IMG/VR virus record: IMGVR_UViG_3300025316_001101
Direction: 5' to 3' (one strand)
Length of the DNA: 64,000 bases
DNA from: a virus
Taxonomy: Duplodnaviria > Caudoviricetes
Shown: positions 967-46,203 of the stretch, in pieces
How the letters are laid out: every line of letters begins with the position of its first letter
How positions within the stretch are numbered: position 1 is the first letter of the stretch
Program-made: the position numbers and the translations under genes
Notes under the pieces: model-generated
Database searches by the model: none
Seen by the model: the letters and a program-made list of their open reading frames with translations, nothing else
What the model was told of the DNA's origin: nothing

Positions 967-1037
967 TGCGGCCGACAAGGATATGGGGTAGTCTTTACGT
1001 CTTTACTTGATGTAGACCACTCCTGCATTCGGCCGCA
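967..1037 (-). ncRNA. Y-RNA-like unit A (short type)
   Basis: 9-bp terminal stem UGCGGCCGA/UCGGCCGCA; GAAUGC...GGUCUACAU...GACUAC...CUUGUC core. Confidence 0.75.
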
Positions 1038-1046
1038 ATACTGCTG

Positions 1047-1124
1047 CGTGGTAGACCTTTGATGGACCTTGCATCTATCCCATTGGATACGCCATCAGAG
1101 GTGGCCACTCCCACCCTATGGTGG
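1047..1124 (-). ncRNA. structured RNA J1 (array-associated)
   Basis: 10-bp hairpin 1056-1065/1092-1101; shares AUAGGGU and GGUCUAC with J2. Confidence 0.4.
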
Positions 1125-1132
1125 TTATATTT

Positions 1133-1192
1133 TGGCTCGACAAAGAGTGACAAGTCTTTGTTATTGATGTAGACCAGTCGGCATTCGAGCCA
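1133..1192 (-). ncRNA. Y-RNA-like unit B (short type)
   Basis: 8-bp stem UGGCUCGA/UCGAGCCA; GAAUGC, GGUCUACAUC, UUUGUC. Confidence 0.75.
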
Positions 1193-1205
1193 TTTGTATT
1201 TACTG

Positions 1206-1333
1206 TTTTGGATTTTAATCTTACCAGACAAAAATCGTAAAGTCTATTGTACTGGGAACATTTAACCCAGTATCTCCGATTGATGGTGGGGATGTAAACC
1301 TTACAAGCATTCTGGTAAGATTGAAATCCAAAA
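1206..1333 (-). ncRNA. Y-RNA-like unit C (long stem, expanded loop)
   Basis: 23-bp terminal stem with one G-U; GAAUGC, GGUUUACAUC, UUUGUC; internal hairpin UACUGGG/CCCAGUA. Confidence 0.7.
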
Positions 1334-1340
1334 TAAAAAG

Positions 1341-1499
1341 TGTGGGTGCCGGGAATTTCACCCAGACCAACGATTTGAAAATGTAGTCCCATCCTGCATT
1401 CGATCTAAACATTCTTTTGCAAGAACATTTGGATTGACAAGGGACGGCGAGACGAACAGCCTTTCGGCATTCGCTGTGCTGATGTTACACTACACCCAC
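1341..1499 (-). ncRNA. YrlA-type tRNA-mimic Y RNA, unit D
   Basis: Acceptor GUGGGUG/CACCCAC+A, D arm GUGU/GCAC, T arm CUGGG-UGAAAUU-CCCGG; anticodon arm replaced by a CUUGUC-hairpin-GAAUGC module. Confidence 0.8.
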
Positions 1500-1522
1500 A
1501 TAAATTTTCAAAAAACAAAAAA

Positions 1523-1597
1523 TAGAAACCTGACAAGAAAACGGCGTAGTCATTTTCATTAATAGTGATGTAGACCACTCCTGCATTCAGGTTTCTA
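1523..1597 (-). ncRNA. Y-RNA-like unit E (short type)
   Basis: 11-bp stem UAGAAACCUGA/UCAGGUUUCUA; core GAAUGCAGGAGUGGUCUACAUCA identical to unit A. Confidence 0.75.
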
Positions 1598-1599
1598 AG

Positions 1600-1767
1600 T
1601 GTCGAGGCCAGGAGTCGCACCTGGACTGGTACTTCCAAAAAGTAAATGTAGTCCCATCCTGCATTCAATCTAAACATTCTTTTGCAAGAATATTTAGATA
1701 GACAAGGGGCGGCGAGACGAACAGCCACCTTGCGGTGGCAAACCGTGCTTCTAAACACTCCCTCGAC
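1600..1767 (-). ncRNA. YrlA-type tRNA-mimic Y RNA, unit F
   Basis: Acceptor GUCGAGG/CCUCGAC+A, D arm, T arm CCAGG-UGCGACU-CCUGG; central module nearly identical to unit D. Confidence 0.8.
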
Positions 1768-1790
1768 AATAAAATTTCAAAGATCAAAAA

Positions 1791-1870
1791 TCAAAATTAA
1801 AACCAGACAAGGGTTCGATAGTCGTCATTTTTCCGATGTAGACCATCTGGCATTCTGGTTTTAATTTTGA
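1791..1870 (-). ncRNA. Y-RNA-like unit G (short type)
   Basis: Perfect 17-bp terminal stem; GAAUGCCAGAUGGUCUACAU...GACUAUCGAACCCUUGUC. Confidence 0.75.
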
Positions 1871-1935
1871 GTCCGACAAGGGTTCGATAGTCGTCACGTT
1901 TTTGATAATGTAGACCATCTGGCATTCGGACTCAA
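1867..1935 (-). ncRNA. Y-RNA-like unit H (short type)
   Basis: 10-bp stem UUGAGUCCGA/UCGGACUCAA; core shared with unit G but a different stem sequence. Confidence 0.75.
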
Positions 1936-1936
1936 G

Positions 1937-2065
1937 AGTTGAAGATGGGATTTGCACCCATAACCTACTGGTTGGATGTAGTTCCAACTACATTTGGGTT
2001 TTAAGGCCCAACAAGGAACGCTGAAACGTTTTGCCGGTCGCTCTATCTAATTGAGCTACTTCAAC
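1937..2065 (-). ncRNA. YrlA-type tRNA-mimic Y RNA, unit I
   Basis: Acceptor GUUGAAG/CUUCAAC, canonical D arm UAGCUCAAUUAGAUAGAGC, T arm AUGGG-UGCAAAU-CCCAU; divergent CUUGUU/AAAUGU module and ACUACAU. Confidence 0.75.
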
Positions 2066-2069
2066 TTAT

Positions 2070-2128
2070 TGTGTAGACCCGCTTCTAATTCCTTTCGGAA
2101 CTAGCCTACCCTATAGGCCGTCCACACA
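2070..2128 (-). ncRNA. structured RNA J2 (array-associated)
   Basis: Closing stem UGUGUGGAC/GUCUACACA; inner CUAGUUCC-GAAA-GGAAUUAG hairpin. Confidence 0.45.
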
Positions 2129-2185
2129 CAGGTTGCCAAGTTATCCCCAGTTCTTGGCTGTAAATTGCTGGGGCAATGTACTCTT

Positions 2186-2213
2186 GATCGCCCGGCCCTG
2201 CGGCCGGGCGATC
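2186..2213 (-). other. 12-bp GC hairpin without U-tract between Ro60 gene and RNA array
   Basis: gatcgcccggcc-ctgc-ggccgggcgatc; no U run on the minus strand. Confidence 0.6.
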
Positions 2214-2224
2214 CCACACTTTAT

Positions 2225-3934
2225 TTACTCGGCTGCCGATTCCTCGACAACTTCTTCTACAACCGGAGCCGCCGAAGCGTCGTCCAGGCTGACATTTTCA
2301 ATCACCTTGACCCAGTGATCCGCATCGTCGCCGCCTTCCATGAATCCGGCAATAACCTGGAACACTTGATCACTGAAGCCACCCACCTGGAGGATGTCCT
2401 GGTGCTGCTTCACTTGGCTGCTTCCCCTCGGGGTGAGGTCGATACAAACCAACTTTGCCCGTGGATTACGCTTCTTGAACGTCTGCCACTCGGTCATCAA
2501 GCCAGTTGCATTACCATAGGCATAACTGTAACCGCTGTCAACCCAACTTTCGTTGTCGCTGATGAAGACTACAAGGTCGCCCTTTGCCTTCTTTGCATTC
2601 AGTTCTGCCAATGGCAAGCTGCAATTCGTTCCACCACCACCATAACGAGCCAACTTTTGCGCATTCGTCATGATGCTGTCCCTCGAATTCAAGTCGTGCT
2701 TGTAGGTTCGAGTGTCGAACGGAATTACATTTGCCTGCTCGTTAGTACGCAACATGGTCACAGCGAACAGGGCCGCTACGTCCACGCACGAAACCGCCGA
2801 AGATGCACCCATTCGGTATCCCGTTGCCGGGCTACTCATTGAGCCTGAAGTATCGACGCAGACATACATTTCGCCGGAAATCTTCGGCACATTTTGTACC
2901 GCAATTTCCATTGCGTCCTGCAACGCCAAACTAATCTGAGTCGGTACGCCAGTCGCCGCCTTGAAAGCCATCAGCAGTTGGTACGGGAATACCCGTGCCC
3001 GCTCAATTTGCTTCTTGTCACGGAGACGTTCAGCAATAATCTGAACCAATTCCGGGTCACTCAATACGTCGTGTCGCTGGAAGGTGTTCAAATTCATTCT
3101 CGTCATCTGCCACGGGGCAGTACGAGCAATTTGCTTCCACTCGGCTGGGCCGATGCCCAACGAGTCCAACATACGGAAATCAACCCTCGGCACAGTGCCT
3201 TCCTTGGTCCGCTTGTAATTTTCGTAATCCTGCACCAACTGCGGAAGCAGGCTATAATCATGTTCGTAGCAAACGCCTTGAGCGTTTACATATACTTCGC
3301 CATTCTTAGCCAAAGTTACGAGCTTACCGTTGCGAACTTCCGCACCCTTGAGGTATGCGAACATCGCAGCCTTAGCTTCACTGGACGGACGTGGCCGTGC
3401 CATACGAAGAATGTCACGCATGGTCGGATCGTTACCGATAGACGCCTTGAACAAAGCTTCGCCGTTCATACGGTCGAACCAATCACGGATTGCGTGCTTG
3501 ATCGCCCACGAAGTCATATTGATCGGCTTACCGGTGATGGCACCACTACGGCCCATCTGAATAAAGTTTCGCAGCATCTTACCATTGTCGATTACTCGAC
3601 GGAAGACCTTACGGAACAACTTCGGATCGATCTGCGACAATACAACCGTCAAGAACGCTGGCATGTCCTTCATGTATGCCTTGTCACGGCAATAGACCGC
3701 AGTCTTCGCCAGGAACAACGGATCGTCAATCAATGCTTGCGCAGCATCCTTGGCAATCTTTAGATTGTCTTCGGCAGATACGTAGTAAGTGCCGTTGAAG
3801 CAGTTAGTCGCTGCAATTTGAGCCAGCGCATGCTTCGAGGAAAATGAATACGCCTTGCCACCAGCCGCATTAACGGTATCCGCTACCGGTGCAATCGGGG
3901 TACGCTGAGACGCAAAAAGGTTCTTGTTAGCCAT
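2225..3934 (-). CDS. rsr: Ro60/Rsr RNA-binding protein (TROVE + vWA)
   Basis: N-AGG-AY start, ARTAPWQMTRMNLNTF-RH, RVFPYQLL-A, vWA DTSGSM and GGGTNCS motifs; acidic tail. Confidence 0.95.
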   Translation of the reverse strand: MANKNLFASQRTPIAPVADTVNAAGGKAYSFSSKHALAQIAATNCFNGTYYVSAEDNLKIAKDAAQALIDDPLFLAKTAVYCRDKAYMKDMPAFLTVVLSQIDPKLFRKVFRRVIDNGKMLRNFIQMGRSGAITGKPINMTSWAIKHAIRDWFDRMNGEALFKASIGNDPTMRDILRMARPRPSSEAKAAMFAYLKGAEVRNGKLVTLAKNGEVYVNAQGVCYEHDYSLLPQLVQDYENYKRTKEGTVPRVDFRMLDSLGIGPAEWKQIARTAPWQMTRMNLNTFQRHDVLSDPELVQIIAERLRDKKQIERARVFPYQLLMAFKAATGVPTQISLALQDAMEIAVQNVPKISGEMYVCVDTSGSMSSPATGYRMGASSAVSCVDVAALFAVTMLRTNEQANVIPFDTRTYKHDLNSRDSIMTNAQKLARYGGGGTNCSLPLAELNAKKAKGDLVVFISDNESWVDSGYSYAYGNATGLMTEWQTFKKRNPRAKLVCIDLTPRGSSQVKQHQDILQVGGFSDQVFQVIAGFMEGGDDADHWVKVIENVSLDDASAAPVVEEVVEESAAE

Positions 3935-4261: not shown

Positions 4262-4453
4262 TCATTCAGTCGGCTTCGGCGGCTGTGTATCGTTCCGATG
4301 AATTGCATCGAAAACTTCACGACGATGGACAGGAACTTCCTTGGGGGCCTCAATGGCAAGACGCACCTTATCACCCCTGATATCTACAACCGTAACCATA
4401 ATGTCGTCATTGATAACAATACTTTCATTCATCTTTCTGCTCAATACCAACAT
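4262..4453 (-). CDS. csrA: carbon storage regulator CsrA
   Basis: MLVLSRK-NESIVI-DDI-VTVV-IRGDKVRL-IEAPKEV-VHRRE; start reassigned to ATG 4453 with GGAG SD. Confidence 0.95.
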   Translation of the reverse strand: MLVLSRKMNESIVINDDIMVTVVDIRGDKVRLAIEAPKEVPVHRREVFDAIHRNDTQPPKPTE

Positions 4454-4532
4454 GTCATTCTCCTCCTGATTAAGCTTGCCCATTTCCATACTTTTACCAT
4501 AAATGCATGGTTTTGGCAAGCGTGATTTTCGT

Positions 4533-5429: not shown

Positions 5430-7675
5430 TACAACATTTTCTTGAGGGCATCAACGTCGATAATCGGGATATTCAATTCCTTGGCCTTATCACTCTTAGC
5501 ACCGGAGCCATCGCCTGCTACCAAGAAACTAATCTTCTTACTCACACTGCTATGGCATTTGCCACCAAGAGCTTCGATCTGCTCCTCCCAGTGTCGCTTG
5601 CCTTCATCAAATCCACCCGACACACAGAAATTCTTGCCAGTCAACTTGCCAACCTTGGGAGACTCCAATTCCACATGTTCCAACAGAGCATCCAATTCCT
5701 TGTGGTGATCACCCAAATAATCGTAGACAATATGTGCTGTTTTCGCACCAACACCCTCCACGGCTTCCAACTCGGCTTCGGTCGCACTACGAATTTTATC
5801 AAAATTTCCGAAATGGTCAACCAAAGCCTTGCCTGCCGACTTTCCAGCAGTCTCAATCCCAAGTGCCGCAAAGAACAGAGCGGCAGAGATCTTCTTCTTG
5901 TGTTTACAAGCCGCAGCAATCTTGTCGGCCAATTCACCATCATCTTCGATCTTTTCCGGGTGATCAATTCCATGAATTGTGCCCACGATCAATAAAGCCT
6001 GCCGCAAACTAAGATCGGAACGATTTACAATCTCAGATTGACTAAGATTATAAAAATCAGCACGATTCTTTACACCTACCGCAATCAACTGTTCCATCTT
6101 GGATTCGCCAATACCAAGCACGCCAAGAGTAGCAAAATAGTGACAGAATCCAGTGATCTGTTTGGCCGGGCAATAATCACTGTAACAAAACAATTCCCAC
6201 ATTTCTTCTCGACCACCACTCGCTGGAGTGTGTTCAAGTGTAGTGATACCACCACAACTTGGACACGTCTTTGGATATTCCGGCGTGCCCTTACATTGAT
6301 CACTGACAACTCCAACCACCTTGGGAATAATATTTCCCGCCTTCAAAACTCTGATGGTTGTTCCAACATCAATTTTATTGCGGATCATATAACCCGCATT
6401 ATGCAATGTTGCACGACCAACATCTGTATCTGCCAACCGTACCTTGTCTTTGAAAATAGCAACAGGCTTAATCACCCCAGTGCGGCCAGTATTCCACTCC
6501 ACTGATTTGATAATCGGCTGCGCCTCTTCCTCGGCAAATTTCCAAGCAATTTTACCTTTGGGGTTTGCTGTGACTGCACTGCCATGCTTACCCAATTGTT
6601 CTTGAGCATCCAAATCGTTTACACAAATAACAATCCCATCAACCCGATAATCCAATTCAGAAACATGCTGTTCAAGCGTATCAAGCAGATAGAAGTTAAA
6701 AAGCGAAACACGAACGAATGGCACACCAAGCATTTGATTTACATACTTAGCCCGTTCAATCTCCGTTTTATACGAAGGCTGAGCAATACCTTCAATACCG
6801 TGGCCCATGAATGACAACCGATGATGTTCGGTCTTGGACGGATCAGTGATCTGTTTAATACCGCCCATCGCAGCAGCACGCTCATTAGCAAATTCTGGTT
6901 CGCCACATTTCTTCTTCCACGCCTGCACCTTCGGAAGATCGGCCCTTCTGATAATCAACTCGCCAGTAATACGACAAGTAATGGGCTCTTTTAATTGCTG
7001 AGGAATTGACTTAATGTATTTAACGTTCTCGGTCACGTCTTCCCCTTCAATGCCACGTCTCGGCCGCAGACCAGCCTTGACCAAAATCCCCTTCTCATAA
7101 TACAAACCAATTGCCACACCGTCCCATTTGTAAGACATGCAGAAATACTCACGGGGATATGTAAAAACTTTGCCGTTATATTTGCGCTCGGCAACATCCA
7201 CCTTCTTATCTTCTACTGGCTTAACCGTCACGGGATCAACCAAAACAATTTTCTTGGCAGACAAATCATAGACCGGACCCTTCTTGACGGCATCACTGGC
7301 CTCGGCTACACAGTCCTCCATCCATTTGAAAAGCATACCTTCCTTAACATCCAACTTTTCATGACTAGCCTTCTCAATAGAAGTCATGGGAGGATGATGC
7401 TTGACTTTCTTACCAACCGCATCGTCCTTACCGGCAGTAATATTGTCAAATACAGTAGAATTGGGCCGGTCGTCCTTCAACGCCTGCCGCATGAAATCAT
7501 AGCGAGGATCAGGAACAGGATGGACACGATCAAGCTTGAATTCTGTGACCAACCAATCCGGCGTACTGACAGGCAACATACAATCCTGCCCATCGTTGTA
7601 AAGTGAATCCAGGCAACCAATTACGGATTCCAATTCATCCAACTGATCGTTCGTATATTTCGTCTGTTTTGACAT
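5429..7675 (-). CDS. ligA: NAD-dependent DNA ligase
   Basis: KWDG adenylation motif, GEDVT-N, DGIV, AWKF, GRTG, ATLHN, C4 zinc finger, HhH repeats, BRCT. Confidence 0.95.
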   Translation of the reverse strand: MSKQTKYTNDQLDELESVIGCLDSLYNDGQDCMLPVSTPDWLVTEFKLDRVHPVPDPRYDFMRQALKDDRPNSTVFDNITAGKDDAVGKKVKHHPPMTSIEKASHEKLDVKEGMLFKWMEDCVAEASDAVKKGPVYDLSAKKIVLVDPVTVKPVEDKKVDVAERKYNGKVFTYPREYFCMSYKWDGVAIGLYYEKGILVKAGLRPRRGIEGEDVTENVKYIKSIPQQLKEPITCRITGELIIRRADLPKVQAWKKKCGEPEFANERAAAMGGIKQITDPSKTEHHRLSFMGHGIEGIAQPSYKTEIERAKYVNQMLGVPFVRVSLFNFYLLDTLEQHVSELDYRVDGIVICVNDLDAQEQLGKHGSAVTANPKGKIAWKFAEEEAQPIIKSVEWNTGRTGVIKPVAIFKDKVRLADTDVGRATLHNAGYMIRNKIDVGTTIRVLKAGNIIPKVVGVVSDQCKGTPEYPKTCPSCGGITTLEHTPASGGREEMWELFCYSDYCPAKQITGFCHYFATLGVLGIGESKMEQLIAVGVKNRADFYNLSQSEIVNRSDLSLRQALLIVGTIHGIDHPEKIEDDGELADKIAAACKHKKKISAALFFAALGIETAGKSAGKALVDHFGNFDKIRSATEAELEAVEGVGAKTAHIVYDYLGDHHKELDALLEHVELESPKVGKLTGKNFCVSGGFDEGKRHWEEQIEALGGKCHSSVSKKISFLVAGDGSGAKSDKAKELNIPIIDVDALKKML

Positions 7676-11905: not shown

Positions 11906-12397
11906 TTACGCTGCTAAATCGCATAGCGAGGCAGTATTCTCCTCTTTCGTTATCTTATCAGAAGAACAGTCGATTTGAAACCCCAAATATTCGCCCTGTT
12001 TTTCAACCGTATCTGCAAGACAGAAACCACTATCATTTAACGGTCTGTCTAACGATATGGGTGTAAAATAGTGATCACGTGCCCCCCAACTTGCCTCTCG
12101 GAGGTAGTCGATAATGGCACCATTGATTTTAATGATTGCATAAGCCTTAAAGCTTTCTAGACAGCCATTAAATTTATTGGCTGCATCTACTAAGCCCAAA
12201 TACGCCGCTGAAATCAATTCATCAGGCTGCACACTTCGGGGAACGCTTCTGCTCTTATGCAGAGCAATTCGTTCAGCTAATTTCATGTGTTCGTAAATCA
12301 GTTCGTCTCGTTCTTCAAGTAATGAAGTTCCCATAGTAAATCTCCTTTTGTAATAGTGATTATGGTAAACATTATTCGTATATTTCGTTAAGTACAT
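11906..12397 (-). CDS. FliA/WhiG-like sigma factor lacking region 4
   Basis: RDELI-EH--LAERIA...DELISAAYLGLVDAANKF...YA--KI-GAIIDYLR, then SLD; ends before any region-4 HTH. Confidence 0.75.
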   Translation of the reverse strand: MYLTKYTNNVYHNHYYKRRFTMGTSLLEERDELIYEHMKLAERIALHKSRSVPRSVQPDELISAAYLGLVDAANKFNGCLESFKAYAIIKINGAIIDYLREASWGARDHYFTPISLDRPLNDSGFCLADTVEKQGEYLGFQIDCSSDKITKEENTASLCDLAA

Positions 12398-13933: not shown

Positions 13934-14605
13934 TTATTCCTCTAATCGCTCCAAAATAGCTGCTACCATAGGATGCCTAACGATAGAATCGCTACCAAAT
14001 TTAACTACTGCTAAACCCTGCACGCTTTCTAGACGAGCAATAACATCAATCAATTCTACATCTCGCAAATCGCTTTGTTTAATGTCTCCATTAACGATCA
14101 TCTTAGTGTTCTTGCCCATACGAGTCAAAAACAGCTTAATTTGCTTTTTAGAAGCATTTTGAGCCTCATCTAAAATACACACAGCATCGTTGAATGTTCT
14201 ACCTCTCATATAAGCAAGAGGAGCAATTTCAATTACACGATTAATAATTTCACGCTGCGGTGTGCCTTCTCCTATCATTCTCCCCATACAATCTACCAAT
14301 GGCATCAAGTATGGATTCACCTTTGCCTCCAAGTCTCCTGGCAAATAACCCAAACTCTCTCCCGCCTCTACTACAGGTCTAGTGAGAACAATTTTCTTCT
14401 TAGTCCGCTGCAATATCTCATAAATGGCAAATGCCATCGACAAGTGGGTTTTTGCTGTCCCAGCCGGTCCTGTCAAAAACAACACATCATGTTGTTGATA
14501 GGCCGCATACGCCAATTGTTGAGACGTATTCATAAATTCAATATGGAACTTATTGGGGGGTGGGGCAGTGGATGTAGAACTCTTAACTCGTTTGGTTTTA
14601 TTCAT
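13934..14605 (-). CDS. phoH: PhoH-family ATPase
   Basis: GPAGTAKT, LTRPVVEAGE-LGYLPGD, AYMRGRTF, DEAQN, LTR-G; start moved to ATG 14605 with GGAGG SD. Confidence 0.95.
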   Translation of the reverse strand: MNKTKRVKSSTSTAPPPNKFHIEFMNTSQQLAYAAYQQHDVLFLTGPAGTAKTHLSMAFAIYEILQRTKKKIVLTRPVVEAGESLGYLPGDLEAKVNPYLMPLVDCMGRMIGEGTPQREIINRVIEIAPLAYMRGRTFNDAVCILDEAQNASKKQIKLFLTRMGKNTKMIVNGDIKQSDLRDVELIDVIARLESVQGLAVVKFGSDSIVRHPMVAAILERLEE

Positions 14606-14663
14606 AATGGTATTTATCCTCCTCAATATAAAAGAAACTAACTTCAGAAATGCTAAATAAAGC

Positions 14664-15152
14664 ATGCGATTTACAGAGTGGCTAATATTGGAGAAATATA
14701 TGACGGATGAATCGGCCTTTTGCGGATATTGCAAAAAGCCACTCGTAGCCAATGTTATTAGCATAAACCCCAATGAAAAATCACCAGGGCAATTAATGCA
14801 ATGTAGTTGCAAAAAATCTAAAATATGGACCAATAGAATTCGTAATGTAGATAACCTTTTAAGATTTGCATCTGGACAAATGCCTAAATACACTAATGGC
14901 TTTTGCAATGATAAATGGTGTGCGTACTGCTTTACATGGCCCGCATCTATAGATTGTGTAAAGACTGGCATACCCAAGGCTGTTCTTAAACATCGACGAG
15001 ATTTAGATCAATACGCATGTAGAAACTGCGACCAAAACAACTTACTGTACATGGATACGTCATTAGAGGGTAGTGAGTTAGACACTAAACCGATACTTGA
15101 TTGGTATAAAAATCACCTAATAGAACTAAAACGAGTGCTTGGTCAAACCTGA
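14664..15152 (+). CDS. Cys-rich zinc-binding protein with capsid-targeting-like N-terminus
   Basis: MRFTEWLILE start; several CxxC motifs; TAAATA 4 nt upstream. Confidence 0.7.
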   Translation: MRFTEWLILEKYMTDESAFCGYCKKPLVANVISINPNEKSPGQLMQCSCKKSKIWTNRIRNVDNLLRFASGQMPKYTNGFCNDKWCAYCFTWPASIDCVKTGIPKAVLKHRRDLDQYACRNCDQNNLLYMDTSLEGSELDTKPILDWYKNHLIELKRVLGQT

Positions 15153-16738: not shown

Positions 16739-18055
16739 ATGAGTTGTAATATATCTGCCAAATTGCACTTCAGGAGATTCCTAATGGAAATGGAAACGAC
16801 CCCAGATCAGAAGGACCGCATTCGAACCATCATACAAAAGCTTATGGCTGATGATAAAAATTGGTTCAATCAGCAAGAAATCGCAGTCGGAAACAAAGGT
16901 CCGTACTGGGTGCTGAACTATATGCAGGGCTCCCGCAATGAATATAATCAACTTGTCCGTGGTATGATTATTCGTAAGCCAAATGGACAAACTATTAATG
17001 ATCCACTCGACCTGATTGTTAGCTTCCCATTTATGCGGTTCTACAATAAAGGCGAAAAAGAAGCTGCCCCTGTTGATTTTTCAAAAGCAGACATGCTAGA
17101 AAAACTAGATGGGTCAATGGTGGGAGTGTTTTTCCCAGATGGCGATCCCTCTAAGCCACAATACCATACTAGAAAAATGGTATCTGCCCATAAACCCGAC
17201 ATGGATATGATGATTGGCGGCTTTGAAACAGCCAAATCCGGCCCACAGCCATTCATGAAAATCATCGGAGAATACGTGAATAAACTACACTTCACTAAAG
17301 AAGATGTAGCTATGACCTATGTTTTTGAATTTATCCATGAAATTAGCAAGGTTCTAACCAGCTACTCGCCAGAAAAATATGGATTACACCTATTAGGTGC
17401 AAGAAACATACGCACTCACCGTGAATTAACAGAAGATCAATTAGATGTAATAGCTCGTAGAATAGGTGCCCCACGTCCACGTCGTTGGAATACTACTGGC
17501 GACGAGGCAGAAATCCGTCAAATGATGGATGAAATTGGCAAAGATACCGAAAACTTTGAAGGGGCTGTGTTCCGAGACCCGGAAGGCAACCGAGTGAAAC
17601 TAAAACGTGATGATTATGTCAAGCTACACCATTTGCTTGACAAACTATCCTTCAAACATTTAATCCCCAAGGTCTTGGAAGGGGAATCCGAGGAAATCAC
17701 TGCTTACTTCCCATCAGCCAAAAAAACCATTGAAACTTTCCAAAAAGCATTTGACGATTATATCGACAAAGCAGTAGTGGCTGTACGTAAATATCATGAT
17801 CAGAAATTAGATCGTAAAACCCTAGCCATGAAGATATTTCATGGAACTGGGGAAGATCTAGACCAGTACATGCGATCCCTGGTGATGAAACATTACGAAA
17901 ATGGTGATGAAGATTCCGTCCGACAAATAATCACAAGAGATCTTAAAACGGTTGCCCTCGGTCGAAATGGCGTTGGCGGCAGTCCACAAAGATTAATGGA
18001 AATTATTGGTATCCATGATGACGAATCGGACGAGAAACAAGACAAAGAGCCTTAA
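16739..18055 (+). CDS. Rnl1-type ATP-dependent RNA ligase
   Basis: EKLDGS (motif I), HTR, YVFEF, EGAVF, VKLK nucleotidyltransferase motifs; PFMRFYN-GE. Confidence 0.85.
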   Translation: MSCNISAKLHFRRFLMEMETTPDQKDRIRTIIQKLMADDKNWFNQQEIAVGNKGPYWVLNYMQGSRNEYNQLVRGMIIRKPNGQTINDPLDLIVSFPFMRFYNKGEKEAAPVDFSKADMLEKLDGSMVGVFFPDGDPSKPQYHTRKMVSAHKPDMDMMIGGFETAKSGPQPFMKIIGEYVNKLHFTKEDVAMTYVFEFIHEISKVLTSYSPEKYGLHLLGARNIRTHRELTEDQLDVIARRIGAPRPRRWNTTGDEAEIRQMMDEIGKDTENFEGAVFRDPEGNRVKLKRDDYVKLHHLLDKLSFKHLIPKVLEGESEEITAYFPSAKKTIETFQKAFDDYIDKAVVAVRKYHDQKLDRKTLAMKIFHGTGEDLDQYMRSLVMKHYENGDEDSVRQIITRDLKTVALGRNGVGGSPQRLMEIIGIHDDESDEKQDKEP

Positions 18056-45839: not shown

Positions 45840-45852
45840 CCAGAAATTTTAG

Positions 45853-46203
45853 TGGAGGCGGGCGTAATCGAAACGCCGTCCAGAGGTACTCTTGCTCCGA
45901 CCTCTACGTGTGTAGTTTGTTGTATTTATCTCATCGCATTGAACTACAGCTAACAAAAGCTCAAATTGACCAGCGACTTTTTTCTTGTTTTGATTCTTGT
46001 CGCCCGTACCAAAACATACCGACTATTACGGCGAGACTTCGGACTTCATCGGTTGGAATTCCTTGTCTCGGCTGCCCAATCTCTTAGGCCGCAACTGCAA
46101 AAGTGTTTGCAATTAGGTTTTGGTCTGCTTTTAACGTGGCCTGCTGACCAACCACGACACGCCATCTGAGTTCGACTTACCCTGTCGAAACCTTGTCGCC
46201 CCC
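45853..46203 (-). ncRNA. ssrA: tmRNA, tag (A)ANTFAVAA
   Basis: 5' GGGGGCGACAAGGTTTCGAC; acceptor GGGGGCG/CGCCUCC with G3-U70; T arm; tag ORF 46110-46084; CCA not encoded. Confidence 0.95.

Follow-up and report, generated by a model that had tools for sequence, protein, structure and literature searches.

A virus of the Caudoviricetes (Duplodnaviria), represented by IMG/VR record IMGVR_UViG_3300025316_001101, carries a gene for the protein Ro60 (rsr) which is followed, on the same minus strand, by nine abutting structured units (U1 to U9, positions 2065-967). The stretch analysed (the window) comprises 64,000 nucleotides. All nine units contain one common handle and, as far as sequence and predicted structure can tell, are bacterial Y RNAs of the YrlA/YrlB kind, which would bind the Ro60 encoded beside them. 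The best explanation of the locus is a phage rsr operon, the 3' half of which consists of nine such Y RNAs, so that one Ro60 is provided with a repertoire of adaptors, matured in part by the enzymes of tRNA processing. A probability of about 0.78 is assigned to this explanation. The window is part of a 102-kb record with a completeness of about 20% by CheckV, and the record is therefore a fragment of a very large phage.

Ro60 and its Y RNAs take part in RNA surveillance and, long studied, are still poorly understood. They are known as a human autoantigen and, in Deinococcus, as part of an RNA decay machine. In humans several Y RNAs (Y1, Y3, Y4 and Y5), which have a common binding helix and differing loops, serve one Ro60. 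Unlike the units of the window, the human Y RNAs are encoded by RNA polymerase III genes that are dispersed or clustered and do not form one operon, and they have no tRNA-like module.

The Ro60 protein

By its domains and its structural relatives, the product of the open reading frame (ORF) 2225-3934 is a genuine Ro60/Rsr. It matches the von Willebrand factor A (vWA) family vWA_Ro60 (PF25045; 64.3 bits, 1.7e-17), the TROVE family of HEAT-repeat rings (PF05731; 28.2 bits against a cut-off of 23, 1.5e-06) and phrog_850, annotated as 'RNA-binding protein' (3e-43). The alignment to the solved structures of human and Xenopus Ro60 and of Deinococcus radiodurans Rsr is full-length; residues 22-531 of the phage protein align with residues 18-533 of human Ro60 (9nen). 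Matches in the PDB are Ro60 9nen (7.6e-16), Rsr 2nvo (8.5e-16) and the Ro60 of phage phiLo, 9kop (1.8e-11). The metal ion-dependent adhesion site (MIDAS, DxSxS) of the vWA domain is kept, VDTSGSM of the phage protein standing opposite VDVSASM of human Ro60, and its residues D361, S363 and S365 are invariant in nine phage homologues.

The handle common to the nine units

The handle is comprised of a closing stem, an RAAUGY/YUUGUY internal loop, a second helix of 7-10 bp (helix 2) and the sequence UACAU. The 5' motif is GAAUGC in eight of the nine units and AAAUGU in U1, and the 3' motif is CUUGUC in six units, UUUGUC in two and CUUGUU in U1, in agreement with the motif pairs listed in an earlier, first-pass annotation made by inspection of the same DNA. 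The 5' motif is separated from helix 2 by 2-4 nt, and the partner strand of the helix from the 3' motif by 4-8 nt. Helix 2 was found in all nine units, with compensatory differences between them, and its fourth pair from the end is always G.U.

Six units (U2, U3, U5, U7, U8 and U9) are closed hairpins, the apical loops of which are A-rich or branched. Their outer stems measure 7-21 bp plus an inner A-U pair, and no two of them are alike in sequence. The overall identity between units ranges from 29 to 80% (U2/U3 80%, U4/U6 75%), and the extended stem of U3 overlaps the 3' strand of U2. The first-pass annotation had claimed that an rsr gene is followed by nine Y-RNA-like units, that the stem differs in sequence from unit to unit with its pairing kept, and that a second helix covaries as well; the protein matches, the motif counts and the structures confirm all three claims, the second one for the six closed outer stems.

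The concentration of the motifs in the array is far above chance. GAATGC occurs 32 times on both strands of the 64-kb window, and nine of these occurrences are on the minus strand between 1025 and 1927. The array, of about 1 kb, contains the composite motif RRATGY-N4-16-TACAT nine times; both strands of the rest of the window, ~127 kb together, contain it six times. After shuffling, the whole window has on average 5.5 composite motifs, so that the six outside the array are at the chance level, and the enrichment in the array, about 200-fold, is specific to one strand. Counted from the rsr stop codon, all nine units are 160-1260 nt downstream and on the same strand, inside the ~4 kb that was taken as the limit for a bacterial Y RNA gene.

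A search of the window with Rfam at gathering thresholds returned only the tRNA family (for U1) and a distant tmRNA, and no Y RNA. At a permissive threshold U5 aligns end to end with YrlB (RF02565; 29 bits, E 0.0022) and U2 matches YrlA (RF02553; 25.4 bits, E 0.0088). In the printed alignments GAAUGC, UACAU and UUGUC of the units fall on conserved consensus positions of the two families. By the Rfam criterion the units are outside the curated YrlA and YrlB families, yet their predicted architecture and their motifs are the same. The conserved 5' motif of the Ro60-binding stem, GNCGAAN0-1G, has been proposed to contact Rsr (Chen et al. 2014, PMC4201824). Its counterpart in the array is CGAAUG in U2, U6, U8 and U9, NGAAUG in U3, U4, U5 and U7, and the degenerate CAAAUG in U1.

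The closed units resemble YrlB of Salmonella Typhimurium and Mycobacterium smegmatis (PMC4201824) in the succession of outer stem, GAAUGC, helix, UACAU with a small loop, 3' strand of the helix and UUGUC. As in the window, the YrlB gene adjoins rsr on the same strand. YrlB is present in one copy, whereas the window operon contains six diverged copies with outer stems of up to 21 bp. The published hairpin Y RNAs of this type have small pyrimidine-rich loops, in contrast to the A-rich apical loops of the window hairpins.

Y RNAs with the topology of tRNA

The other three units, U1, U4 and U6, have the order of the motifs reversed, a feature not emphasised in the first-pass annotation: the 3' motif is followed by a hairpin and then by the 5' motif, and the remainder is shaped like a tRNA. 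The ends of each unit form a 7-bp stem, a 2-nt linker leads to a D-arm-like hairpin, and a 5-bp stem with a 7-nt loop adjoins the terminal 3' strand. In all three the handle forms the tip of the arm on the anticodon side. In U1 the 7-bp acceptor stem, the D arm and the T arm are combined with a handle (CUUGUU-hairpin-AAAUGU, an 8-bp helix 2 and UACAU) that replaces the anticodon loop. U4 consists of the acceptor, the D arm, a GNRA hairpin and the T arm, its handle being closed by a 14-bp hairpin with a GCAA loop. The score of U1 against the tRNA family RF00005 is 43.8 bits, above the gathering score of 29 bits, with a 61-nt insert at the anticodon loop, and ARAGORN calls this unit at default settings with introns allowed. 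All three units are without a 7-nt anticodon loop and without the canonical elbow nucleotides of tRNA. None of them encodes CCA, the discriminator base being followed by CUU. None of the four phage tRNA genes that ARAGORN calls outside the window, on the rsr strand of the record (G000, 100830-102031), encodes CCA either; their 3' context is A-CUU in three cases and A-CUA in one, and one call, of 94 nt, has an unreadable 4-nt anticodon.

YrlA resembles a circularly permuted tRNA with a closed acceptor (PMC4201824; bioRxiv 10.1101/312249). Its tRNA-like domain is known from a crystal structure (PDB 6cu1, bioRxiv 10.1101/312249). U1, U4 and U6 have in common with YrlA the Ro60 handle, the T arm, the D arm and the acceptor stem, and the order of handle 5' strand, UACAU, variable region and T arm is kept. 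They differ from it in that their ends are at the acceptor stem, as in tRNA, in that the handle is closed by a hairpin, in the deviating elbow loops and, for U4 and U6, in extra hairpins. The three units are an exact circular permutation of YrlA, in which the outer stem is sealed and the break lies at the acceptor loop. The canonical YrlA topology, in which the tRNA-like module is inside the 5'/3' Ro60-binding stem, is found in no window unit. It is found in the relatives described below, in the order closing stem-GAAUGC-helix-UACAU-T arm-closed acceptor hairpin-D arm-helix-CUUGUC-closing stem (L002 4327-4457, L004 5697-5818 and 5833-5969, L006 3679-3936, L007 3514-3649, and several in L076). 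Because these relatives carry canonical YrlA with the same order of parts, U1, U4 and U6 are regarded as true permutations. Unambiguous units of tRNA topology occur elsewhere in L005 (7700-7830), L033 (6682-6812) and the bacterial locus L109 (5808-5929). The tRNA-like Y RNA thus appears to exist in two topologies, one of which has true tRNA ends. In the literature search no report of a Y RNA gene with tRNA topology came to light.

A single precursor gives rise to YrlA and YrlB in M. smegmatis, where YrlA is cleaved by RNase P and acquires a CCA end (Chen et al. 2014, PMC4201824). The similarity to the window lies in an open 7-bp acceptor stem on a tRNA mimic for Ro60 and in the production, presumed for the window, together with a second Y RNA from one precursor. 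In M. smegmatis, however, the acceptor is opened by cutting of a closed loop, which results in a two-piece RNA, whereas the window units encode the open acceptor in one piece.

A 'canonical' YrlA reading of the array, in which tRNA-like parts of neighbouring units would be combined, was considered and rejected. Each distal hairpin is contiguous and ends in a tetraloop or a short loop; no complementarity exists between the acceptor halves of U4 and those of U6; and compensatory changes in a natural variant (X5, see below) pair the ends of U4 with each other. ARAGORN-with-intron calls in bacterial tandem arrays of canonical YrlA (L104, L112, L117 and L129) were discarded as artefacts in which the D arm belongs to one unit and the T arm to the unit after it. 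A regular expression for 3' motif-hairpin-5' motif did not separate permuted units from neighbouring closed units, and the covariance models of the closed hairpins gave only weak partial matches to U1, U4 and U6 (8.7-12.4 bits).

Homologous arrays and covariation

A covariance model (R1) was built from the six closed window units only, and a second one (R2) from 22 sequences after the R1 search. R1 detected 15 further units beside Ro60 homologues of 42-57% identity in seven of the first eight related viral contigs. The R2 matches numbered 121 in 74 sources, 115 of them in addition to the six of the window, and a further 291 were found in 80 bacterial loci that encode a Ro60 of 47-52% identity. 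The bacterial loci with matches belong to Acidobacteriota, Verrucomicrobiota, Planctomycetota, Myxococcota, Hahella and others. Every match of either model is on the strand of the Ro60 gene. In the Mx1 phage, with a Ro60 of 43% identity, R1 had no match. A lone motif like that of the X strand is present downstream of Ro60 in this Myxococcus phage (L009, position 5942), inside an annotated hypothetical coding sequence (5908-6153).

Over 120 distinct sequences, 94.8% of 1538 cells are paired; sliding of the partners lowers this value to 34-54%. Double changes occur in each of the 13 modelled pairs, and one pair of helix 2 is G.U in 94 of the 120 sequences. The model built from the units, when applied to the Ro60 neighbourhoods of other phage contigs, thus yielded both further units and strong covariation. 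Together with the recurrence on the Ro60 strand and the YrlA/YrlB consensus positions, the covariation supports the proposal of the first-pass annotation that one Ro60 is accompanied by a repertoire of Y-RNA-like partners.

Synteny among the relatives is not conserved beyond Ro60, the Y RNAs and tRNAs. Ro60 is located inside tRNA operons: of the 341 tRNA genes in the related phage loci, 340 have the orientation of the Ro60 gene, and 25 of the relatives' 80 Y units are separated from a tRNA gene by no more than 15 nt. An array of 35 tRNA genes in L083 has seven Y units distributed along it, and 12 of the 39 loci with matches have no tRNA genes. Near Ro60 in L083 (1665-3888), L076 (5755-8200) and L089 (3093-3911), 7-12 Y units lie among genuine tRNA genes and often abut them directly. 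An 88-nt tRNA-Thr-like gene with an extra anticodon-arm hairpin and without a Y handle was noticed in L003 (5632-5719), immediately behind the Ro60 stop codon and ahead of two Y units.

The size of the arrays

Judged by motifs and model matches, multi-unit arrays are the rule in this clade of Ro60, and nine units are near the top of the range and not unique. Related viral loci contain 0-8 matches of the covariance model each, and counts of the X-strand motif reach 12 in L076 and 7 in both L089 and L083. In the bacterial loci the median motif count is 4 and the maximum 8; ten model matches are present in 1.3 kb of Hahella sp. NBU794 (L164 5629-6933). In the 80 bacterial chromosomal loci of this clade the Ro60 strand typically bears 3-6 Y-RNA units, the largest arrays having about 10. 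The clade as a whole (big phages, Acidobacteriota, Verrucomicrobiota, Planctomycetota, Myxococcota and Hahella) would normally have 3-12 Y RNAs per array.

Work on bacterial Y RNAs has so far dealt with two Y RNAs per species: 'at least two' are described per bacterium (PMC4201824) and two in phage phiLo (PMC12135203). No paper describing such Y-RNA arrays was found in a literature search, outside of which were the supplementary tables of Chen et al. 2014. The statement of the first-pass annotation that usually one or two Y RNAs are described per locus therefore holds for the literature, but not for nature, where 3-8 or more units are usual in this clade.

Thermus phage phiLo (PMC12135203) is similar to the present phage in that its Ro60 gene has adjacent Y-RNA-like genes, Yrl1 and Yrl2. 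Binding of the Yrl RNAs by Ro60, and a complex with host PNPase, were obtained in vitro (PMC12135203). The two RNAs of phiLo differ in being upstream of the Ro60 gene; no form with tRNA topology has been reported, and the Ro60 proteins are distant (1.8e-11, partial alignment).

Natural variation and open reading frames in the array

The array was found in freshwater and lake metagenomes of several studies. Positions 900-2142 are identical in metagenome run X2, while X5 represents an independent, diverged strain. In the U4 acceptor of X5 the pair 1763/1605 is changed from A-U to G-C and 1762/1606 from G-C to A-U, and in the T stem 1621/1611 is changed from G-C to A-U, which makes three compensatory pair changes in total. 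Both GCAA tetraloops of U4 are GUAA in X5, and its distal hairpin contains two pair-preserving changes (U.G to U-A and A-U to G.U). Insertions and deletions in X5 are confined to loops, spacers and the U-run of the terminator.

The first-pass annotation had found no credible ORF downstream of rsr. Mechanical ORFs do exist in the array and reach 117 aa, so that this claim holds only in part. The five largest ORFs overlapping the array have no match in PHROG, which for the 117-aa ORF is the sole evidence against coding. Three other mechanical ORFs (105, 63 and 67 aa) would be frameshifted by the X5 insertions and deletions.

Maturation and function

Two sigma-70-like promoter sites stand upstream of rsr. 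The next such site on the minus strand is at 944-917, just beyond the array, and the consensus scan showed no strong promoter within it. The GC-rich stem of U9 is directly followed by eight U (966-959), and for this reason U9 is likely to be the intrinsic terminator of the rsr-array operon. Transcription would accordingly proceed from the promoters upstream of rsr to U9. The tRNA-shaped units would then be excised by RNase P, followed by RNase Z or exonucleases, and CCA would be added. Excision of U1, U4 and U6 would at the same time free the intervening hairpin units, the tRNA-shaped units serving as punctuation of the precursor. Each mature RNA would be loaded onto the one Ro60 of the phage, giving rise to a set of ribonucleoproteins in which differing effector modules gate Ro60 or tether it to host factors, such as PNPase in the case of the loop-type units and tRNA-binding proteins in the case of the tRNA-type units. 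Co-transcription and maturation by tRNA enzymes are the most economical model because of the CCA-less CUU contexts and the presence of Y units among tRNA genes.

By analogy with D. radiodurans and Salmonella (PMC4201824 and work cited there), the handle is expected to bind the Ro60 ring on its outer face; the variable module would then gate the ring or link it to partners such as PNPase. Tethers, specificity subunits and decoys had all been suggested in the first-pass annotation as roles of the RNAs; evidence for or against these roles was not found in the sequence. An extended version of the preferred explanation, in which the units of tRNA topology are matured exactly like tRNAs and perhaps charged, is unlikely. 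These units would couple Ro60 to the host tRNA and translation machinery, or act as bait for that machinery, and the hairpins would couple Ro60 to other effectors; the whole would be a phage toolbox of interchangeable Ro60 adaptors that reprograms host RNA decay or repair or, during infection, blunts defence directed at RNA.

Several observations weigh against the explanation by separately matured Y RNAs. The best Rfam scores are far under the gathering thresholds (25.4 bits for U2 against 69 for YrlA; 29 bits for U5 against 97 for YrlB, the model of which was built from enterobacterial sequences). ARAGORN recognises U4 and U6 as tRNA-like only once its threshold is relaxed. The T loops (UGCAAAU in U1, UGCGACU in U4, UGAAAUU in U6) have no canonical U55 and the D loops no GG, which may make the elbow, the part of a tRNA that RNase P recognises, atypical. 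With spacers of 0-8 nt between hairpin units, it is not evident how units such as U2 and U3, or U7 and U8, would be separated. Finally, the alignments were fitted to the model and lean towards its structure; the outer stems, however, are wholly different in sequence between units, which indicates that the covariation signal is not an artefact of alignment.

The short spacers, together with the overlap of the U3 stem with the 3' strand of U2, the sole terminator at U9 and the lack of a strong internal promoter, would also suit a different arrangement: one long uncut multivalent RNA, a scaffold or sponge for up to nine Ro60 rings, comparable to CsrB with CsrA dimers. This appears improbable. Three of the units have complete acceptor stems and 5' and 3' contexts that match the phage's own tRNAs, and units in the relatives are interleaved with genuine tRNA genes, which must be excised. 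The Y RNAs of M. smegmatis are likewise processed from one precursor (PMC4201824).

Somewhat less probable still is that the array serves mainly as a decoy or counter-defence, with or without Ro60, soaking up or redirecting host nucleases directed against tRNAs or phage RNA. Genes of RNA repair and translation rescue are in the neighbourhood (an Rnl1-like ORF, phosphoesterases, a tmRNA and tRNA genes), phage Bas63 has a Ro60-like protein that acts against the ppl defence system (bioRxiv 10.1101/2024.10.10.617714), and the authors of the phiLo Ro60/Yrl study proposed a hijack of host PNPase (PMC12135203). Lacking an anticodon loop, however, the tRNA-shaped units cannot imitate the structure that anticodon nucleases usually attack. 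Arrays of this kind are also common on bacterial chromosomes, and what they would do there against a defence system is not apparent. A comparison of the six hairpins' apical loops with the rest of the 102-kb record yielded only chance-level complementarity (9-11-mers) to other phage sequences.

The likeness of U2 to U3 and of U4 to U6, which resemble recent duplicates, and a spacer element, J2, that may be a decayed copy, raise the question whether most units are decaying duplicates without a function of their own, only one or two being active. This is very improbable, since the complete handle and helix 2 are kept in nine of nine units in spite of an identity of 29-80%, the array is identical or nearly so in metagenomes of several studies, and the changes in the variant are compensatory and not disruptive.

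It is scarcely credible that U1, U4 and U6 take part in decoding, as genuine tRNAs interrupted by inserts, and that the hairpins are no ligands of Ro60 but serve for processing or spacing in a tRNA operon: U1 does exceed the Rfam tRNA gathering score and Ro60 does occur within tRNA operons in relatives, but the three units have non-canonical T and D loops and no 7-nt anticodon loop, their insert has the same handle as the six hairpins and YrlA/YrlB, and the hairpins are kept beside Ro60 even where there are no tRNA genes. We know of no bacterial splicing system for such tRNA inserts.

Many large phages and several bacterial phyla possess comparable arrays. The set of units, with its sharply defined handle and invariant G.U, would be a large natural mutagenesis collection for definition of the Ro60 binding site, and the locus a clean test case for the maturation of Y RNAs by tRNA-processing enzymes. 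Such compact operons could be expressed to find what each module recruits.

Features of the locus and neighbouring genes

The features of the locus are collected in Table 1.

Table 1. Features of the rsr-array locus, in window coordinates
Feature	Position	Strand	Evidence
Putative sigma-70-like promoter TTTACA-17-TATAAT	4121-4093	-	Consensus scan, 11/12 matches
Putative sigma-70-like promoter TTGACT-16-TATAAT	4049-4022	-	Consensus scan, 11/12 matches
rsr/Ro60 gene, 569 aa (TROVE ring and vWA with DTSGS MIDAS)	2225-3934	-	Pfam, PHROG and PDB matches
12-bp GC-rich hairpin directly after the rsr stop codon	2186-2213	-	Fold
J1, three-way-junction RNA element without full Y handle	2070-2128	-	Fold z -3.85
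U1, tRNA-topology Y RNA	1937-2065	-	Rfam tRNA 43.8 bits; ARAGORN; helix 2 pairs
U2, closed YrlB-like hairpin Y RNA	1867-1935	-	R1 73.3, R2 62.6 bits; Rfam YrlA 25.4 bits
U3, closed Y RNA, outer stem 15 bp	1793-1867	-	R1 71.6, R2 62.2 bits; fold z -5.65
U4, tRNA-topology Y RNA	1600-1767	-	Fold z -4.78; relaxed ARAGORN; natural variant
U5, closed YrlB-like Y RNA	1523-1597	-	R1 74.9, R2 63.7 bits; Rfam YrlB 29 bits
U6, tRNA-topology Y RNA, paralogue of U4 (75% identity)	1341-1499	-	Fold z -3.93; relaxed ARAGORN
U7, closed Y RNA, 21-bp outer stem, 52-nt branched apical module	1206-1333	-	R1 60, R2 54.4 bits; fold z -6.97
U8, closed Y RNA, smallest unit (60 nt)	1133-1192	-	R1 64.2, R2 59.2 bits
J2, structured spacer element between U8 and U9	1047-1124	-	Weak fold z -1.71
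U9, closed Y RNA, GC-rich outer stem	967-1037	-	R1 74.2, R2 63.5 bits

Two elements of the array are without the full Y handle. J1, the 3' strand of which is GGUCUACAC, precedes U1. J2 contains GAUGC-AA-GGUC and GGUCUAC, the latter in common with J1; the covariance model had no match in J2, which is possibly a decayed unit, perhaps a permuted one.

The region that spans the hairpin at the 3' end of rsr (2133-2224) folds with -42.6 kcal/mol (z -4.45). The hairpin has no U-run on the minus strand and is possibly a 3' stabiliser of the processed rsr mRNA. Around the 3' end of rsr, contigs of metagenome runs X2 and X3 contain 94 other letters instead of 122 nt (2174-2297), which points to a co-existing strain with a different rsr terminus.

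The neighbourhood fits a theme of RNA maintenance and proves nothing. A 438-aa ORF on the plus strand (16739-18055) scores 27.4 bits, with the cut-off at 27, against the C-terminal domain of T4 RNA ligase 1 and may encode a ligase for tRNA repair; near it are the genes of a PhoH-like ATPase (13934-14977) and of a protein with sigma-70 region 2 (11906-12397). An NAD-dependent ligase and a phosphoesterase are also present. On the minus strand, at 45850-46203, is a tmRNA gene (Rfam, 140.9 bits) whose tag peptide reads ANTFAVAA. The minus strand also contains, some 330 nt upstream of rsr, the gene of a CsrA-like regulator of 85 aa (4262-4519; phrog_9500, 2.8e-21). The idea of a CsrB-like sponge, which came from this neighbour, was dropped, as about 10 GGA were counted by eye in the 1.1 kb of the array and about 17 are expected by chance.

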